Shown here one piece after another: positions 1,162-18,450 of a stretch of DNA of 41,762 nucleotides. Source of the stretch: Trichodelitschia bisporula (taxonomy: Eukaryota); assembly GCA_010356995.1 (NCBI GenBank), contig ML996691.1:62001-103762 (forward strand), read 5' to 3'. The notes beneath the pieces are model-generated. The model saw only the letters and a list, made by a program, of their open reading frames with translations, was not told the origin of the DNA and did not search any database. The translations under genes were made by a program, and so were the position numbers. The first letter of the stretch is position 1; each line of letters starts with the position of its first letter.

Positions 1162-1995
1162 TCAGACAGGATCATCACTAAACGCTTCCTCCCCCTCCCC
1201 CTCCCCTTCCCCAACCCCACTCTCGGCCGCCCCCTCCTCCCTCAGCCTGATCTTCTCCATCCGTGCAGCCCACATCCCACTCCCCGCCGCCGACGTCAAG
1301 AGGAACAACATACTCAACCCCGGTACAAGCTGCAACACCAACGCCACAGTCCCAAACCACGTATACCCCCATCTGTACTTCTTCACCCACGCCCTCCTCT
1401 CCCGCCTTCCGAATCCCCGGAGCGCGAAATACCGGTGGTGTAAAAGCGGGCCCGCGCGATACCCGGTGAGGAGCAGGAACGCGGGGACACCGACGTAGGG
1501 CAGCAAGTTGAGCGGCAGGAGGAGGATAAACTCCGCGATCTGGCGGAAGCTGAACGGCGCGTACACGCACTTCATCATCGGTTGGCCGAGCCTCTCGACA
1601 TAATCCCCGTCCTCCGACGGCGCGACTGGGCGGCTAAGCGCAACCAGCTCATCCAGCCCGTGCGCCACGAGCACAGCGTCGAAGATATCAACCTGCGTTT
1701 CGTCCACGAGGAAGGCTTCGAAGAGGAGTGCGGCGATCGCAGCGCCCTCGGCGAGCACAAGGAAGGTCCCGTTTATCCACGCCGAGGCGCCGCGGCGGAT
1801 TAGGGCTAGGAAGGCGACTTGGGGGAGGTAGGTGAATGTGAAGAGGAGGAGGAGGATGAAGAGGGTTAGGAGGGTTGCGGGGAGGAGGCGCGCGCGGAGG
1901 AGGGGGTAGAGGGGGGGGTGGGAGGCGAAGTAGACTATTCCTATGAGGGGGTAGAGGCCGGGGGCGTGGACGAGGCGGGAGACGATGGTTGGCAT
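1162..1995 (-). CDS. EI24-domain membrane protein (Lds1/Lds2/Rrt8-like outer spore wall/lipid droplet family)
   Basis: ATG at 1995 (MPTIVSRLV). Multi-TM protein with YPLIGIVYF..HP.L, VDIFDAVL, LPLNLLPYVG, HHRYFALRG and FGTVALVLQLVPGLSMLFLLTSAAGSGMWA motifs typical of the fungal EI24/Rrt8 family. Confidence 0.8.
   Translation of the reverse strand: MPTIVSRLVHAPGLYPLIGIVYFASHPPLYPLLRARLLPATLLTLFILLLLFTFTYLPQVAFLALIRRGASAWINGTFLVLAEGAAIAALLFEAFLVDETQVDIFDAVLVAHGLDELVALSRPVAPSEDGDYVERLGQPMMKCVYAPFSFRQIAEFILLLPLNLLPYVGVPAFLLLTGYRAGPLLHHRYFALRGFGRRERRAWVKKYRWGYTWFGTVALVLQLVPGLSMLFLLTSAAGSGMWAARMEKIRLREEGAAESGVGEGEGEGEEAFSDDPV

Positions 1996-6893: not shown

Positions 6894-6963
<70 letters not shown>
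6894..6963 (+). repeat. Poly-G homopolymer (70 nt) downstream of the TAF12 stop
   Basis: Directly visible. Confidence 0.95.
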
Positions 6964-7323: not shown

Positions 7324-9395
7324 ATGTCCAGTCGCGATATGCGCGCGCCAACGCCAACGCATACCCGCGCAGAAGCCCCACACCCACCCACAGACACCGA
7401 AGACCCTCCCAACGGTACGCAGCCGGCATCTCCTCTCCTCTCCCCATCCACCCTCCNNNNNNNNNNNNNNNNNNNNNNNNNNNNNNNNNNNNNNNNNNNN
7501 NNNNNNNNNNNNNNNNNNNNNNNNNNNNNNNNNNNNNNNNNNNCCCTCCTCCACAGCCCCCCCCACCTCACATCCCCACACCTACCGCGCCTCATGCCAC
7601 ACCCCCGCCTCCCTGACGCATTACTTGGCCACCGCCCGCCCAAAGCCCCTAGTCCGAATCGTGCACGTGCAGAGCAGCGAAGGGTGGGCCGTGCCCTGCA
7701 TCTGCGCGCACTACGCCGCGTACCGCCTAAGCTTTGCCGTCATGGGCCCCGAGACGAGGGCGGGTCGGCCCGTGTTGGGGGCGTATTGTGCGGATTTGGG
7801 CAAGTCTGGCATGGGGGCTGGGGCTGGGGGGTTTGGCTTCTGGATCGATTACTTGCAGTGTTATCGGAGGGGGCAGGTGCGGGGACGCGAGGGGTACAAG
7901 CTTATGGAGTTAAACTGGTGGGATCGTGAACAGGGTGGGGAGGTGCGGTTTGGGTTTGAGGTGTTTGTGCAGCGGGTTAACGTGTGGGTATTATGGGGGG
8001 AGGGGGATGAGAAGGGTGGGGGTTTCGACTACGGTACACCTCCCTGTTCTCTCTTACCTTTGCACATATTATGAGCTTGGGTCATGGTGAAAGCGGGAAA
8101 TCTGCAGCGGCCTGCAGATCAGGATTGGTTTCGTTGTGTTGATGCGTTCGGGCTTTGAGATGAGGCGCCTGTACGCAGATGCGTGTTCGTCGATATACAA
8201 ACCCGTTGACGAACAGGCATCTGCATACAGGCAGCTCATCTCAAAGCCCGAGAGCATGAATACAACGGAACCAACCCGGATCAGCAGACCGCGCCGATCT
8301 CCCGCTCTCCCGCTCTCCCGCTCTCCCCATGGGTTTGTGGTATAATGCTCACTCCCTCTCTCCACAGGCACATCAACGATCATCATCCTTGACACCGCCC
8401 ACACACACGACCCTCAAGATACCCTCATCTACCCCAGCTCCGGAATCGAAAGTTCCTGGCGCGACCTCCCCCCCTCCTCCCCGTCCTCTCTGCGCCTCGC
8501 CGCCCTCAACGACGTACTATCCTCCGTCTTCACCGCCCTGTCCCGATCCTGGAAATTTTTGCTCGAGCGCTGCGAGGAGCACGTCTCCATCCTCGAAGAC
8601 AACATATACGCGAGACCAGCTGATGATTCCCGCGACACAGAGCTCTGGACCAATGTCGCGTTGTGGCTCAAGCTATCCAAGCTGCTTGTGCGGCAAATCG
8701 ATGCGCTCTCCACCCTCCAGGGCTCCCTCACCATCATCGCCCCGGAGTTTGTGTGGCTCCCTACCGCCCCAGCCTCGCTCTCAAGCCTCGCCGCCCAGAT
8801 CGATAAGGCATTAACCCAGCCCACCGCCGGCCTAACAGAAGTCATGTACAAATCGGTCTCGATCCGCGACGCCCGCGCGGCGCTCGAGCTAAACACGTCA
8901 GTCTGGCGGCTCAGCTGGATCACATTCATCTTCTTGCCGCTGAGCTGCGTGGGCGGGATTTTTGGGATGAATGTCAGAGAGTTTGGGAGTGGGGAGCAGT
9001 TTCCTAGATTGATGTGGTATTTCATTACTGCGTTTCCGTTGATGGGCATTGTGGTTGCGGTTTATTGGGTGATCAAGGGAGGGGATCCAAGAAAGGAGTC
9101 GAGAAAGGATTTGGAGGAGTGCGGATGGAGGGGAAGAGTGAGGAAGTGGTGGGGTAGGCGGAGTGTGGTGAGGGATAAGGTGCGTGTAGCGGAGGAGGGT
9201 GGGCGAGGTGTGAGTGGAGGGGAGGGAAAGCTGTATGTGGAGCGGCGGGGCGGGGAGGAGGGGGTGGAGGGGTACAGTGGGAGTGACGGGGATGGGGGGC
9301 AGGTGGGTGGTGGGGCGGAGAGTACGCGGAGGAAGCCGAGTATGGGGCAAGCAGGGGGCGGGGCGGAGAGAGGGGTGGAGATAGGGGTGGAGTAA
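7324..9395 (+). CDS. CorA-like Mg2+ transporter-domain protein; 5' part crosses the N gap; long intron 8034-8367; last exon 8368-9395
   Basis: Joining ..GGFDY-G|GTACAC..GCTCAC..CCACAG|GC-TSTIIILD.. links the 7625 ORF frame to the 8559 ORF frame. C-terminus has HVSILEDNIY.RPADDSR..ELW and SVWRLSWITFIFLPLSCVGGIFGMNV (GMN signature plus 2 TM helices). Start codon uncertain because of the gap. Confidence 0.8.
7457..7543. other. Assembly gap (87 N)
   Basis: Run of N flanked by C-rich sequence. Confidence 1.
8112..8287. repeat. Long imperfect inverted repeat (82-nt arms 8112-8193 and 8206-8287, 12-nt loop) inside the CorA-like gene intron
   Basis: Manual alignment of the left arm to the reverse complement of the right arm: 69/82 identical, no indels. 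Weaker pairing extends outward to about 8084/8331. Confidence 0.95.
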
Positions 9396-10472
9396 GAGTG
9401 GAGCGGAGAGAGCGGGGCCAGCGGGAGGAACAGTTGGGGGTGGGCAATATGGGGAGAGCGGAGAAGGCGGGGCCAGGGCTGTGGCATGACTGGATGACTA
9501 GACTTCGGCTTCCAGAGCTTGTAGCATAGGAGTGGCTGAGCACGACGAGAAGGGAGGAGACATGAACGAGACGGATACCAGGTGATATGGTTAGCTTCAC
9601 TGTAAGTACCGCTGCCTGGCGCACTCTTTTTTACGAGGTCGACATATCTTGAATACTCTCCCAGACGCTTCCGACGCTGGTGAAGATCCCACTGATCGAT
9701 GAAGGACGCGGCATGCCGATGCCATTTCGAGAACGGCTAAAGAGGATTCCCGCGTTCGATCACGCAAAGCGGACGGTAGTCGGGGAATCACGGCACATAT
9801 GAAAACATCGAGCGCATAGTTGAAGATGCGAAGAAAGATGAGGAAGAAGAAAAGATGAGCGGCGAGGTGTCTCTTGTTTAAATACCCCCCGGTGCCACGC
9901 TCCCTCCTTCCGAGCTCACTCGAACCTCCCTTCCCGGCTTGCCATACATCGCTTCCTCCAGCAGATTCCTTCCTGGAACAAAAATACACCTTTCGTTGCT
10001 CACTTCGGAGGGGTGGTGATCCAGGCAGGTACGCTTCCAGCCGCTCCCGCCTCGTTAGAATGTGCTGGGTTACAGTTCAACCCAGCTGTAGAACGACCTG
10101 AGGCTCAAGTTGACAAGGAACATCCGCGACTGACAGAAAGACAGAAGCCCAAACCTCTGTACAGCTTCATATGCTCCCTCGCTAGAGGAAAGAGCTATCA
10201 GCGCGCCATGTAGGCTGACAGCTGGGTAGCCATGCGCGGTCTGAGCTTGGTTTATGATCACCCCGGCGTGGGGATAATCAAATCACTATCTCCCTTTTAG
10301 GCCAATTGTGTTCCTCTTGGGTTAGGGTTCTGGATCCCTCCTGCAGTGCTCATACCTCCTGCACCCGGTAAGCAGAGACATGTGCAGAGATCTGCACATG
10401 GGCATATAGATTCGACATGGATCCCAAGATGGGAGCGACCGGTTGGCCCTCCAGTCCCTCGGAGAGCGCGTT

Positions 10473-10500
10473 GATCATCATCATCATCATCATCATCATT
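10473..10500. repeat. (ATC)n microsatellite
   Basis: gatcatcatcatcatcatcatcatcatt. Confidence 0.9.
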
Positions 10501-11166
10501 CAACGGAGAAACCAACCATCCTGAAACCCACCACATATTTCTCGACCGCCGCAGTGCGCCGGCTACATCCAACAGCGACATCCGAACAAGCATGCGCCGC
10601 GCCGACCAAGCTCCCTAAGCACCGCTCCAACCCATCCCGCAGGACACCTTTCCGCTAAACTCCCCCACACCGCAAAACTATGTGCTAATGGGAGCAATCA
10701 CGTCAGAGCTTCCCCCTCCCGCCAGCAGGGAGCTCCCGCCCCGCCTCCATCAAGCCGTCCCCAAGTAGCGAAGCTTCAGCCTCGCGGAGCCCGTGCCAAG
10801 AATCACGCGATTCCATGCCTGGCGCGCGCCATGCTGCGCACAGGCACAACATGCAGGCCGCCAGATCGGGCAAGTAGCTACCCAAACGCCTTCCTGTGAT
10901 TCGTTGCAAAACTGCACGGACTCCGGGTCGCCATGTGGGCTTTATCCCCACCTCGTTTGCGCGCTGGCGGAGCAAGCCGAGCGGGGAAGGCGCGAAAGCT
11001 CGCCATCCGCGCCGGACCAGTTGCGGGGCGGGGCACGCGGCGGGGCGGACGGCGGGGAAGCCACTTGAGTGCGCAATATCGCGTGCGTTGCGGCGGGGTG
11101 GTATATAAGGTGCGGATGGGGACAGCGAATATGTACCTGGTATATTCGGGTTCGTTGTCGCCAATC

Positions 11167-12612: not shown

Positions 12613-13200
12613 TGGCCGGGGCGGCCGTTGGGAACGAGCGTCGGTGGAGAGTGTCTTGCGGCTTTCAGCGCTGGGAGAGCGCCTTAATTTAGTCTCTGCA
12701 TAATGAACAATGGAACCACTCAAGTATGGAAAGCCTGTTATGCTTAAAGAAGTATAAAAATGATTGCGACGCCTCAGTGATCACAATCATGGAATTACCT
12801 AGTGCGAGTAGAGTATGATTCCTTAAGCAGAGCAGAGATTATGGCCGTTGGCGTCCCATGGCGTATGCCAAAGGATTCCTGCCGGAAGGAGCTATAGGGC
12901 ACCACTGTATCTTAGCAGAGTTTTCTTCCCACTTCCTCTCTTCATCTTCACAGCATTCAGTCACATACGAGTCACTTGTTTTCACCACGGTTTCGCGTGT
13001 TGCTTGTCGTTGGGCATACTCCCACCAGTACGGAGTACTGCTCGAGCAGTGCAAGTGCTAGGCTGACGACAGATGCCAGCCTTGTCAGACGACAGCGTAT
13101 CTTGCCATCACATGGGATACCCAGCACCCATTACGGTATGAACAAATTCCTCGTCATGGAATTGACTAAAAAGTTCATTGAGTAGTTTCGTACGCCATGG

Positions 13201-13970
13201 TCACGCAAGTACGACATTGACTTTCACCACTAGATACGAGTTTTCCTTCAAAGTGGTAAAAGTCGTTGCCGCCTCTATCATGCCAAGACTGGGTGTAGGG
13301 CCACGTTTAAATCGCCTGAGACCTTCGTATGTCCGAAGTATCTGAGGCTGGCTGACCTGGAGTAGTCCTCGAAGTCTACCAAGCCGCGGAAGTCCAAACG
13401 AGGAACGCAAAATGTCGCCGTTGAGCATACGTCGCGCCACATAGAGTCCTGCCGGAAGTGAGGCTGTGGTGCCAGGTGACGTCAAAACAGGCTGCGACCT
13501 GGGGAGCTGAGATTGCGCCCCAGAGCAGTACTCGCAGAGTGCGGAAGGTGAGGGGAGGAATGGAGAATGCCATTCTGGACTGCGGGGTAATAGCGGGAAA
13601 CCCCGCGCCGAGTCCGTCGTTGGCGGCTCGGCTTGCCAACGCTAGGTACGGGCCGGTCCGTAAGCTTGTGATGATCCCCGCGTGGACCCCGCCTAGACCA
13701 AAAAGAGGGTCTTATGTGCAGTCCCGTGGAAATGCAGTTCACGAATACGTTCACAAACGCTATGAGACGAGAAACAAACACTGCGAGACAACAGTATTCC
13801 GGACAAATATTGACGAGACTTGTGTACGGTAGCGCCAGCCGCCAGCCGCCAGCCGCAGCCTTGCGTCTGAATGATCAGGCTTTGACACCCTTGCCCGGAC
13901 TGACTGCCATCATTACGGTAGCTGATATCCTTTCAGCCCCCTCATGCGGGGAACCGGCTTATTTCCGCAA
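13201..13970 (-). pseudogene. Frameshifted, internally deleted paralog of the adjacent HET gene (copy A), including upstream region
   Basis: Minus-strand peptides in three frames (RGP..PSVGKP, GFPAITPQ, PSALCEYC) match the HET N-terminus (RGP..SRVGKP, GAPTTTRQ, PSGLCEGC). Ends VNVVLA* versus RDVVLA* (15/17 nt identical at the stop). Confidence 0.7.
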
Positions 13971-14197
13971 CCGGCGGCGCATTGGAGCCCAACTATGCGT
14001 GAGCGACTGCTTTCAGGAAGAGGCATTATCGCAGCCAGTGTGCCCAGTCGACGCGTCGGGCTTCGTCCGGACCGGACGCTCCACTCTCACTCGACTAAAA
14101 AGACCTCATCGGGCCGCTAGCCGATCGCCCCAACGAGGTTCCGGACTGTCGAGTGACCTTTACCAAGTGCTAGATTTCAACGTCAGTCCCTATCCTC

Positions 14198-14300
14198 CGT
14201 ATCGTCACATCGCCGCATCATCATATCGTTGCATCATCACATCGTTGCATCATCGTATCGTCGCATCATCGCATTGCTGTATCGCCACTTCGTCGCAATC
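14198..14300. repeat. Degenerate ~8-bp tandem repeat (CATCGTYG-like)
   Basis: cgtatcgtcacatcgccgcatcatcatatcgttgcatcatcacatcgttgcatcatcgtatcgtcgcatc... Confidence 0.7.
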
Positions 14301-14471
14301 GCCTCTAAGATTGTTATGCAGATGCGCTGAAAATGCTGTATGTGATGATGATGTGGCTATGCGCCGAAATGGTAGCGTAGGGAGAAATATGGTGTTCGAT
14401 TAGGCACTGCTAACAGATTCCTCGTCATCAAATCGAGTACACAGTAGATGGACCATCTTCACACCCTATCG

Positions 14472-16868
14472 TCAAGCAAGTACAACATCCCTTAACACTG
14501 CCCCCTCCATCCCGCGCTCATGAATATGCCCCACACCAACCCTAACCGCCACATCCTCCTTCCACTCAACAAGCATGACGTGGTACATCTTCTTCCCATG
14601 ACCCAAACGACTATCAAACCTCGCAATCTTCAAGTAGCTGTGGAAGCTAATTTTGTCAGAAAAGCTCGAAAGAAGCACGAGGTCGCACGGCTCGCGCGCC
14701 GCCCGCTTAGCGTCGGGCGGGACGATCATCGTCATAGCCCCAACCCACACCTGCCCGGCGAAGATTTTAAAAACTCCTGTTTCGCCCGGTGCAATTCGGC
14801 AGGCCCTCAGGCGAGAACGTGAAAGAGCGGTATACGGCGTAGTCTCGCGTTCCAATGTGATGCAACGCGTAGCAAAACAGAGGTGCACCGGAAGCTGCAG
14901 ATCCACAATGCCGGACCTGTCACTCTGGCCAGGCTTGTACACGCTCCCATCCCCCGCGCAGATCATCCACTCTTCTACCTCTCTTTGACATGGCTGGAAA
15001 GTTGGCTGACCCCATTGCGCCTCGGTCAGGTGGCTCATTCTTGGATACTCCACCTGCCCGATCCACCCTGCCCAAGCCCAGGTGGGCCACTCTTCCCGCC
15101 TGCGCTCCGGTGCTTGCCAGGGGATCCAAACCAAACTCCACTCAAAAAGTACGTCTTCTGGTAAGCCGACTACGAACCGCGCTTCTAGGAAATCCCCTAA
15201 CCGACTGAGTACTCCCGCCGCCGCGTTCACGGCATCGGAGTCGAAGCTCAACTTCCTCGCCGTGTAATCCGATACAGCGACTGAATAGCTTGCGATCATG
15301 TTTGGGCTCCCTTCCGGCCCGGAATATTGACCGGAATCCGTCTGCAGTAGAGGTGCGAGTCTGGTGTTGCTCGGGTCGGAGGGCAGGAACGGCTCGATGA
15401 CATCTTCGTATGCGATGCCGGATTGACAGGCGAAAATGCTTTGGCCCTCTGAGAAGATCATCAGGCGCGACGACAGGAGATGTTCCTGCCACGTCCACCC
15501 GCGGCGGGACCAGGGCGTAGACTGCATCACCATCCGCATACTCTGGGCACCGATGACGAACCTCTGCCCTTGAATGTCAAACACCGGGCGCTCAGGCCTA
15601 GAACTAGCCCGCCATCCGGGGAGCCCTGGCTCGGCATCCACCGACGCAGCGACGATAGTCAGAGCAGCGGACGAATAAACGGCATCCATCTGCAGAATCT
15701 GCATCTCCTTATCCGCCTCGCTATCCTGGAAGATGCAGAGCGCATCGACCCACAGATATCGCTCCTCAAGCGCTTCCACCGCTTCCAGCGCATCCTGTAC
15801 CGTGTCTGACAGTACGGCGTCCAGTCCCCCCGGCGTGTAGAGCGCATCCTTCGTCCGCTGCTCCAGCATTACGGTGTTCGATCCTGCCCACACGTAGCTC
15901 AGCGCGACCCATGATGCGCCCGGCGGGGCATCTACTACGCATCGGCGCTGTACGTCGAGGAGGCGCATTTCCACCGGCACATTTGCCTTGTGGCCTGGGT
16001 CGTCGGGGAAAACCTTCTTCGGGGCGGCACAGCGGCTGTGCCCGCAAAGACACGCCTTGTACCACGCCTTCAGCAGCATACGGTTTACCTGGCTTTCAGG
16101 CATGCGGGCACACTCACGCGCCACTTCACCGGGGGGAGTGACGAGGTGGGCATCATCGGCCAGAAGGCGCATGTTTACCCTCGGAGCGTTCCAGTACCAG
16201 AGGGAGAAGCTGGCACGGTCGGCGGGCTCGGAGAAGTACACATGCTGTGTCCCGGTAGAGCTTACGCTGAAGTGCACGGATAAATTGGCACTGTCGAAGA
16301 TCCTGCCGAAGGTGGGGTCCTTCTGCCAGTCGTGCGTGGCGACGGTGGTGTGCCAGGCATGCGCGAGGAGGGCGCAGAGCGCGCAATTGGGTGTGCGGAG
16401 TGCGCGCGAGAGCACACCGGGTTCCAGTGGGGTGTGCCAGGGGGCCCTGCTGGGATCGCAAAGCGAGCAGGGGCCTTTGGTGAGTGCGCACGAGAGCACG
16501 GGAGCTACGAGTGCGGGGGATTCGACATCGTACATGAGACGCCTTTTGATGGGGGTCGTGAGCATTTTGAAGCAGTCCTCGCAGGGCTGGTCGGAGACGT
16601 CCCCGAGCGCGGGAGTTTCGACTTTGTGCATAAGATGGGATCTGAGGGAGGCCGCGGTTTGGATGCAGCCCTCGCAGAGGCCGGAGGGCACGGGGGACGA
16701 CGGAGGGGACGCAAGTACGGGTTGCCGGGTAGTGGTGGGAGCGCCGAGCGGAGTCGCCCGTTTGAGGATCGGCTTGCCGACTCTGGATGCCGGTCCTGAC
16801 TTGTGGACCGCGCCGTGTGCTTGGGATGGACCACGCGTGGATTTTGGGGGTTCGCGGCCTTTGGCCAT
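14472..16868 (-). CDS. HET-domain (heterokaryon incompatibility, TOL-like) protein, 798 aa, intronless
   Basis: HET blocks RLLDV..RCVV..WVALSYVW, YLWVDALCIFQD..DKEMQILQMDAVYSSAALTIVAA and PWSRRGWTWQEHLLSSRLMIF. Downstream YTARKLSFDSD and WPTWAWAGW; C-terminal VMLVEW..VAVRVGVG. Confidence 0.93.
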   Translation of the reverse strand: MAKGREPPKSTRGPSQAHGAVHKSGPASRVGKPILKRATPLGAPTTTRQPVLASPPSSPVPSGLCEGCIQTAASLRSHLMHKVETPALGDVSDQPCEDCFKMLTTPIKRRLMYDVESPALVAPVLSCALTKGPCSLCDPSRAPWHTPLEPGVLSRALRTPNCALCALLAHAWHTTVATHDWQKDPTFGRIFDSANLSVHFSVSSTGTQHVYFSEPADRASFSLWYWNAPRVNMRLLADDAHLVTPPGEVARECARMPESQVNRMLLKAWYKACLCGHSRCAAPKKVFPDDPGHKANVPVEMRLLDVQRRCVVDAPPGASWVALSYVWAGSNTVMLEQRTKDALYTPGGLDAVLSDTVQDALEAVEALEERYLWVDALCIFQDSEADKEMQILQMDAVYSSAALTIVAASVDAEPGLPGWRASSRPERPVFDIQGQRFVIGAQSMRMVMQSTPWSRRGWTWQEHLLSSRLMIFSEGQSIFACQSGIAYEDVIEPFLPSDPSNTRLAPLLQTDSGQYSGPEGSPNMIASYSVAVSDYTARKLSFDSDAVNAAAGVLSRLGDFLEARFVVGLPEDVLFEWSLVWIPWQAPERRREEWPTWAWAGWIGQVEYPRMSHLTEAQWGQPTFQPCQREVEEWMICAGDGSVYKPGQSDRSGIVDLQLPVHLCFATRCITLERETTPYTALSRSRLRACRIAPGETGVFKIFAGQVWVGAMTMIVPPDAKRAAREPCDLVLLSSFSDKISFHSYLKIARFDSRLGHGKKMYHVMLVEWKEDVAVRVGVGHIHERGMEGAVLRDVVLA

Positions 16869-17194
16869 CGTTCTGGCCGATGACAGGATAATGCTGTTGA
16901 AGTCCAGCGGAAGCGTTTGAGGCGAATACGTATTCGAACGCTTTGATGGAATGAAACAAGCACTTATAGGTAGTAGGATTCTGGATAACCCTTTGGACTG
17001 GGCCGGCGCTGCATCGTGTAGCTTTATCTCTCTTAATAGAGGAGGATCTGCGTGCTAAGTCTCAGCTCGCTGACCCATGTGGGTGCCTTTGATCGGCAGG
17101 AATTGGTGGGGCGGAGGGCTCTACGGTACGCACTTTATCGAGATCGGCGGGCATGCATGGCACCTTGTACCGACGTCACAGATCAAGGTCCATT

Positions 17195-18450
17195 TCAGTT
17201 CTCAACCCACGCGTGACCTTGCAGCCCCGACGACCTCACTGACCACGCTCGCATGAGGACGCTGAGTCGCGGAGTTGGTGGCGCTTCCTGCACCTCACAG
17301 CGTCCCTTCAAAATTCTCTCAATGCGCCACAGTTGTACCAGAGTATTGGCGTAGATTCCCTTATCAGCACCGATCGTCAACCAGAGCCTTGTGTCCAAAT
17401 TATCCGAGGCTGACGGGCCTTGAGTCGCTCTCAAAGCCCAACGGGACGCGTAAGCCTAAACAGGAACGTAAATGTCGTTGTTGAGCACATGTCGTGTAAC
17501 GAACTGCCGTGCCGGAAGTGAGGCCGTGACTCCAAGTGACGTCGAAAAAGGCTGTGGCCGGGGCAGGTGAAGAAGTGCTAAAGAGTAGCATCCCAGATTA
17601 GGACAGGGTGAGGAAGAACGGACAGGACACCGTCGCGAGTAGAGGTATGATGATGGGGGTCGTGGGGGAGGATGGAGGAGACGTCGTGTACATTGCGGGG
17701 TATTGGCGGGGACTGCCGACGCTAGCTACGGGCCGAGCCGTTAGGGTACCCTATGACGATCCTCGCACGGACCCAGGCTCAATCGAACACAGAGCTTTAT
17801 TGTTGAAGTCCGACGACAACGTCCTGTCTGAATACGTATCCGAACACTATAACTGAACGAAATGGAGACTATGAGACTATAGGATTTGGGAGAGCCCTCC
17901 GCGCGACTGGTGGAGCATTATGCAGCTTGATCGATCTCGACATCGGGGGCTTTGGGTATTGGACCTCAGCTTGTTGCTCGACACCTCACCGGCATTTCAC
18001 TCAAGGTCAGGACGTCGATGCACAAGCTGCTGCTACTGGCCGTAAAGCCAGTGGTGCTGCGGCGTTTCTTCCGGCGCTGCGGCGCGTGGTTGAGATGTGC
18101 AACAAGCAAAACGCTCACAAGCTCGACGCCACTATATCCCGGGTCAACGGAGAGGCACGTAAGGTCGAGGCGGACGCGCTTACAAACCCATCACCTGTGA
18201 TGGATAGAAATAGACAGACGGCAGGCTCTATCTAGACTGGCCGGTAGGCATGGGCACCAAGTACGCCTACGGACATGTGTTCCGGTTGTCCTAGATCAGA
18301 GCTCTCCCTCATACGGTACTGACTGCCACCCTAAGCCTTTGCCTTCGGATACTCGGACTGTGTTCTATCCTCGCCTAGGTTTAGAATTTCACTATTCGCT
18401 GATATCCTTGCAGCCCCTATCATGCACGGGCGGCCTTTTTCCGCAAAGGG
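17195..18450 (-). pseudogene. Second decayed HET-related unit (copy C): upstream region plus 5' coding remnant
   Basis: 17460-17590 aligns with 13400-13530 (gccggaagtgaggc.gtg..cca.gtgacgtc.aaa.aggctg). 17800-17860 aligns with the HET 5' leader 16895-16950 (tgttgaagtcc..gaatacgtat.cgaac). 18398-18447 aligns with 13921-13970. Contains stops. Confidence 0.65.

Follow-up and report, generated by a model that had tools for sequence, protein, structure and literature searches.

Why does a CorA-like gene carry, within an intron, a hairpin with long arms, and does the hairpin serve any purpose there? The window, i.e. the whole stretch of 41,762 nucleotides analysed here, contains this hairpin in a spliced intron of 334 nt, and the original prediction had offered three readings of it: an intron-hosted small-RNA gene, a structure controlling splicing, or an old MITE or fold-back element. 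The third fits best, as it accords with the existence of a second copy, with a central deletion and with short orthologous introns, although only two copies are known and no convincing target-site duplication accompanies them. We thus consider it likely that the hairpin is a decayed, low-copy foldback or MITE-like element that was inserted into an ordinary short intron of the CorA-like gene and was later shortened in its centre. The features on which this view is based are listed in Table 1.

Table 1. Features of the hairpin-bearing intron and the adjoining exons of the CorA-like gene (positions in the window).
Feature	Position	Strand	Basis
Upstream coding exon of the CorA-like gene, visible part	7547..8033	+	open frame ending ...GGFDY + G; orthologue alignment; spliced contigs
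Phase-1 intron, 334 nt, GT..AG	8034..8367	+	contig joints; junction in protein P0001; position in 5/66 orthologous loci
Putative 5' part left of the host intron, with donor GTACAC and a pyrimidine tract	8034..8082	+	sequence; introns of L117 and L125 likewise begin GTAC
Left repeat arm, with core 8112-8193	8083..8193	+	repeat scan, alignments
Block most alike to the C9 copy, 22/24	8159..8182	+	P 0.09 on random placement; contains the seed that found the C9 copy
12-nt loop, a deletion joint; 3' part AAACCCG is right-arm sequence without partner	8194..8205	+	alignment with the C9 copy
Right repeat arm, with core 8206-8287	8206..8331	+	repeat scan, alignments
8-nt unit in three tandem copies, by which the right arm is expanded by 16 nt as compared to the left	8299..8322	+	alignment; flagged repeat
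Putative 3' part left of the host intron, with branch-site-like GCTCAC (8347-8352), pyrimidines and CAG acceptor	8332..8367	+	the intron's only branch-like motif
Downstream coding exon with CorA domain and GMN motif	8368..9395	+	Pfam PF01544, E 1.2e-11

On realignment the hairpin was recovered exactly as it had been described, with two gap-free core arms of 82 bp that enclose a loop of 12 nt and differ by 13 substitutions and no indels. It is part of the longest inverted repeat of the window (85 nt, 85%), the runner-up in the repeat scan measuring 38 nt. Four of the differences had been assigned to G-U pairs on the sense strand, and these are found at 8131, 8138, 8147 and 8192 of the plus strand; the others had been regarded as small mismatches, and three of these, at 8124, 8166 and 8174, are G-U pairs on the minus strand. 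The looser pairing proposed for about 8084 to 8331 reflects real homology, with 92 of 110 aligned positions identical between 8083-8193 and 8206-8331, but it is gap-free only in the core: since the outer arms differ by a 1-nt indel and by a 16-nt expansion of an 8-nt unit, the whole element of 249 nt is not. This element has a G+C content of 57%, and the intron contains stop codons in all six frames. Folding had been suggested as a check, and the plus strand of the intron indeed reaches -177.5 kcal/mol as compared to a mean of -101.4 kcal/mol for shuffled sequences (z -12.98; 0 of 100 shuffles as good), the opposite strand reaching -180.4 kcal/mol (z -13.12). A G-U-rich outer helix (8064-8079 with 8332-8345) occurs in the minimum-energy fold only and is absent from the centroid; it was left uncounted.

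The regularity of the core is no more than chance provides. With 13 substitutions, a complete lack of indels is nothing unusual (P 0.09-0.43 if substitution:indel ratios of 5-15 are assumed), and perfect pairing extends over at most 17 bp, just as far as in random placement on average (mean 17.1, P 0.48). The core differences comprise 7 transitions and 6 transversions, and all six transversion mismatches are purine-purine on the sense strand, which by itself would speak against a decayed element, the corresponding ratio in the full repeat being 6:2 (P 0.29). RIP was considered as the cause of decay and is unsupported, given this balance of transitions and transversions and a TpA/ApT value of 0.29.

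The splice junction proposed for the intron was confirmed, as contigs of both runs (2/2) join across exactly 334 nt with GT..AG ends and the public protein model P0001 joins the two exons at the same position. The contigs come from two runs of one sample in one study, and their RNA status, a guess made by the mapping tool, is backed by seven GT..AG joints. The other joints between 7550 and 13000, the part of the window compared in this respect, skip 42, 48, 48, 63, 87 and 116 nt. No contig spans the hairpin interior (8096-8277), which is uninformative because contigs drop rare forms. Judged by the branch consensus, we take the GCTCAC motif near the acceptor to be branch-site-like. One contig of run X2 opens with about 28 letters of the 3' end of the intron (8342-8369) and goes on at 9497, with non-canonical ends; it is probably a chimera.

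Among the 230 homologues listed for the downstream exon the named ones are fungal, and the top match, P0001, is identical over the query and bears the name of a Dothideomycete species; a close paralogue of the host gene that could serve as internal control was not found. An assembly gap (N at 7457-7543) interrupts the CorA-like gene in the region 7325-7745, and the true start of the gene is upstream of this gap. P0001 starts at an ATG near 7742 and omits the upstream in-frame stretch VRIVHVQSSEGWA; since this stretch matches a motif conserved in the orthologues, the model is probably truncated at its N-terminus. The CorA-like protein is unusually derived, as it is devoid of a loop of 40-90 residues with a conserved NPY motif before the intron (window 7980-8033) and a glycine-rich tail stands in for much of the conserved C-terminal region (window 9060-9395); it is still expressed and has kept the GMN motif. 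We also considered that the intron might be this loop, which the orthologues possess, in intronised form and rejected the idea, as the residues are missing from the exon itself, before the junction, and the translations of the intron are, by eye, dissimilar to the loop.

Further observations concern the surroundings of the gene. The CorA-like gene is preceded by a run of 70 G (6894-6963), located between it and its upstream neighbour, which may have arisen through an error of assembly or sequencing. Between the CorA-like gene and the cupin gene the plus strand gives rise to a spliced transcript region (9404-10797; GT..AG joints of 63 and 116 nt; longest ATG-started frame 50 codons), which would be either an extended UTR or a non-coding transcript. 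At 13141-17862 a HET-domain gene is flanked by several direct repeats that have diverged (57-101 nt, 70-75%), which suggests an old duplication.

The history of the intron can be approached via 80 orthologous loci from metagenome contigs, 66 of which were callable at this codon and 14 of which were not called. Five of the 66 contain a phase-1 intron at the same position and 61 contain none. The five introns, which represent about four independent lineages as two are near-identical, are 53-75 nt long and fold with only -4 to -14 kcal/mol; two of them begin with GTAC, like the 334-nt intron. If 8083-8331 is removed from the latter, 85 nt remain, retaining the donor, the pyrimidine tract, the branch-like motif and the acceptor. 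Because the same-position introns are short and unstructured, the hairpin looks like an insert, and an old short intron with a hairpin insert would be the simplest reading of these sequences. An old age of the intron is less than certain, since the position is intron-free in the closest-matching orthologues, those with a best hit to a Tothia protein as the nearest homologue with a name. There is redundancy among the 61 intron-free loci, some of which may represent transcripts; the distribution is patchy, and introns may have been gained in parallel at this position.

The same data bear on the idea that the whole intron is an introner-like element, i.e. a mobile structured intron that was recently gained. 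PMC3879977 describes fungal introner-like elements as structured and as exceeding resident introns in length, which holds for this intron, too, and the position is empty in most of the callable loci. Yet the intron shares position and phase with the five short introns, so that the position is not lineage-specific, and BLAST-type searches of the genome revealed no near-identical introns elsewhere and hence no family of whole introns. Moreover, only the arms bear a strong likeness to the second copy, which lies past a stop codon. This reading is already largely refuted, and we regard it as extremely improbable.

The hairpin had appeared to be a single-copy sequence, a view that was dropped when a two-arm profile, run over loci from motif searches, found a second hairpin on another contig (G000:C9). 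Its arms (L176 1425-1531, plus strand, and 1604-1697, minus strand) are in hairpin orientation and in the same arm register, with E values of 1.8e-9 and 6.7e-6 at whole-genome search size for a profile built from the intron copy only. This C9 copy (L176:1425-1710, about 980266-980551), which has a 14-nt inner palindrome in its spacer, folds with a z of -10, and its arms are 63-69% identical to those of the intron copy. It is located about 40 nt past the stop codon of the NTR2 gene, outside any detected intron context, and this different genomic setting argues for a transposon. In an end-to-end alignment the intron copy is devoid of a 67-nt centre that the C9 copy has kept. Given this gap, and as the last seven bases of the loop are partnerless right-arm sequence, the 12-nt loop is a deletion joint, and its tight, pre-miRNA-like shape results from the loss of the centre. 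By the same comparison the intron copy is a central-deletion derivative of the C9 copy. A 10-nt word followed by ATAT stands before the left arm here (8056-8070) and after the right arm at C9 (L176:1702-1724) in the same orientation, probably by chance.

The second copy also bears on whether the hairpin might be a one-off, non-mobile inverted duplication of existing local sequence that arose by fold-back during replication or repair. The very low copy number, BLAST matches restricted to the query itself and the lack of a target-site duplication would be expected for such an event, but a C9 hairpin in the same register would then demand either two independent fold-backs at the same place in related DNA or a later segmental copy that comprised just the hairpin, which makes this origin highly improbable.

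Further copies were sought throughout the genome. BLAST-type searches with the element, with one arm and with the C9 copy returned self matches only, and six genome-wide motif searches together with the three BLAST searches yielded no third paired copy, although more diverged copies could escape them; the sequence examined directly amounted to about 1 Mb plus the motif matches. Motif matches numbered 16, 11 and 38 (30 of the 38 cut out as loci) versus 12, 2 and 21 in the reversed control, and 15, 14 and 11 versus 8, 18 and 13 in later searches. One of the 50 non-self loci from the first three motif searches could be extended, namely L176. The three later motifs were based on both copies; the first picked up three of the four arms and the other two all four, with no additional paired match. 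The other non-self matches of the three later motifs were judged by position only, and none was paired in opposite orientation nearby. Six further, weaker candidate stretches gave no profile match, and locus L016 was too weak to be counted as a copy, its E being 0.0025 when two arms were used and 0.16 when four were. Among the motif-search matches no arm match lay beside a long element, and a 24-nt motif had no exact match in viral contigs.

Hence, the case of many dispersed copies with target-site duplications, which the original prediction had named as the signature of a MITE, is not what the genome contains: two copies are recognisable, and the candidate duplications are 4-5-mers at chance level around uncertain ends, the best 5-mer here overlapping the arm end. 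The element is short and non-coding, has inverted arms of about 110 bp in both copies (outer ends uncertain) and is dispersed, if minimally so with two copies. MITE families usually have more than two copies, and ends that are not sharply defined speak against a transposon. Because the copy number is low and the candidate duplications do not exceed chance, we do not file the element as a bona fide MITE. Nevertheless, MITEs and other remnants are described as accumulating in fungi stochastically, by drift (PMC5751038). In a background sample of 80 stretches of 10 kb (800 kb, mostly at 100-kb steps, contigs C1-C10), four stretches contained seven other local hairpins with arms of at least 35 bp, three of them at least 90 bp. 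Two of the seven are mutually related, at about 75% (L194:5972-6193 and 8492-8680), and none is related to the intron hairpin; the others are a cluster of three (L200:5700-6523) and two single hairpins (L193:1075-1209, L056:28-274). As extrapolation from 800 kb suggests that the genome probably contains 100-200 long hairpins, such a structure is not rare here.

Might the stem have been kept for splicing, either as a zipper stem that helps to remove the 334-nt intron or as a switch that tunes expression of the transporter? It had been proposed that folding brings donor and branch point together. The geometry is right, as the stem lies wholly between the two and a linker of about 70 nt is predicted to remain if the outermost helix forms, within the 42-85 nt by which yeast zipper stems are defined in the account of PMC12350175; moreover, the branch motif is predicted to be open (0.94 unpaired). 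On the other hand, several observations speak against a function. The outermost helix is predicted to be only about half formed (0.48 unpaired), and with the core alone the linker would measure about 104 nt. The acceptor is predicted to pair with flanking sequence (0.02 unpaired), a weak prediction. There is neither a strand bias nor a retained or alternatively spliced contig over the hairpin, the latter being a weak argument since rare forms are dropped from contigs, and for the related copy, situated behind a stop codon, a zipper would be pointless. A selected role in splicing is therefore quite unlikely.

The remaining reading, a small-RNA precursor, was the headline of the original prediction. 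It would make the hairpin one member of a two-member family of functional intron-hosted milRNA or hairpin-siRNA precursors, in which Dicer cuts the pre-mRNA or the lariat and the product guides Argonaute. As expected for a stem-loop precursor, the host gene is transcribed and spliced and a very stable stem of about 110 bp is predicted in the intron; the genome has two loci with Dicer-dimerisation domains, so that incidental Dicer processing of the stem is possible. MITE-derived MIR genes, which PMC10004981 describes as established in plants, provide a precedent. Two comparisons between the copies are also compatible with a functional product. Among 107 four-way columns, nine have both arms changed together between copies, versus one and one for the other patterns (P 0.0014), and a 24-nt block of the 5' arm is identical at 22 of 24 positions. 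These double-sided changes, however, would fit founders that were different perfect palindromes, or arm-to-arm DNA conversion, as well as they fit selection for RNA pairing, and the conserved block has a P of 0.09 and includes the search seed.

The other tests provided no support for a small-RNA gene, be it Rfam, strand bias in energy and G-U pairs, or perfect pairing. Rfam gave eight weak matches, none near the gathering score (best 25.7 versus 85 bits). Signs of selection on the RNA strand are absent: G-U-compatible changes are distributed 4:6 between sense and antisense in the full repeat of the intron copy and 11:9 in the C9 copy, i.e. 15 versus 15 in total, small numbers in each case, and the energies of the two strands are within 3-6 kcal/mol of each other. 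In the genome no close match to the arms that could serve as target was found besides the C9 copy, and the arms have no match in the 80 orthologous loci (best E 0.25), which belong to distant species. In the excerpted account of PMC9757828, fungal mi/milRNAs are 'very rarely' wholly intronic and many published loci fail re-analysis. A search that covered mostly titles and abstract openings, without supplements, found no papers on this locus. As small-RNA reads are the defining feature and wholly intronic loci are described as very rare (PMC9757828), we do not file the hairpin as a milRNA, and we regard a functional precursor as unlikely.

A more specific variant links the two copies to each other. 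NTR2 is a spliceosome-disassembly factor, and the 3' arm in the CorA-like intron might release a Dicer-cut small RNA that is complementary to the NTR2-adjacent hairpin and regulates spliceosome disassembly in trans, the nine double-sided changes reflecting selection for pairing in such a domesticated pair. We consider this very unlikely.

Returning to the insertion of a MITE-like element, the sequence of events may have been as follows. A non-coding fold-back element of about 250 nt, its arms measuring about 110 bp each, would have moved into the short intron; most likely it was a non-autonomous DNA transposon of MITE or foldback type, now decayed. Subsequently, its central spacer would have been deleted, so that the arms met as a tight hairpin, and substitutions and a microsatellite slip would have accumulated afterwards. 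In the pre-mRNA the insert may fold between donor and branch site, presenting the spliceosome with a near-normal intron of 70-85 nt that is removed at its usual ends. The insert would be tolerated because the folded form leaves such an intron, and would have no selected function.

Compared to known systems, the intron resembles the introner-like elements of Dothideomycetes, as summarised in PMC3879977, in being long, structured and efficiently spliced. It differs in that the repeat unit is the inner hairpin, the position is shared with short introns and a family of near-identical introns is absent. As in fungal mi/milRNA loci, as far as PMC9757828 describes them, the hairpin is imperfect, is part of non-coding sequence that is transcribed and occurs in a fungus that has genes with Dicer domains, but an intronic site is rare for these loci and their defining criterion is small-RNA reads. 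If a precise Dicer product did exist, the locus would join the rare fungal milRNAs hosted by introns, its origin could be traced to a transposon-like element, and a candidate target would be at hand. The geometry is that of the zipper stems of S. cerevisiae as outlined in PMC12350175, whereas the stem in question is a single inverted repeat of about 110 bp, apparently of inserted origin and known from its sequence and predicted fold. In contrast to fungal MITEs as portrayed in PMC5751038 and PMC10004981, only two copies were found, with 63-69% identity, the candidate target-site duplications stay at chance level, the ends are not sharp, and the G+C content is 57% instead of the sequence being AT-rich. 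Nevertheless, the element is like fungal MITEs and TIR remnants in these accounts in being short, non-coding and dispersed, with long inverted arms near or inside genes, a variable central spacer and one deletion derivative. As best explained, it matters little, being one more self-folding DNA insert tolerated in a fungal intron, and its small value is that of a clean example of insert decay in which a relative has preserved the lost centre.
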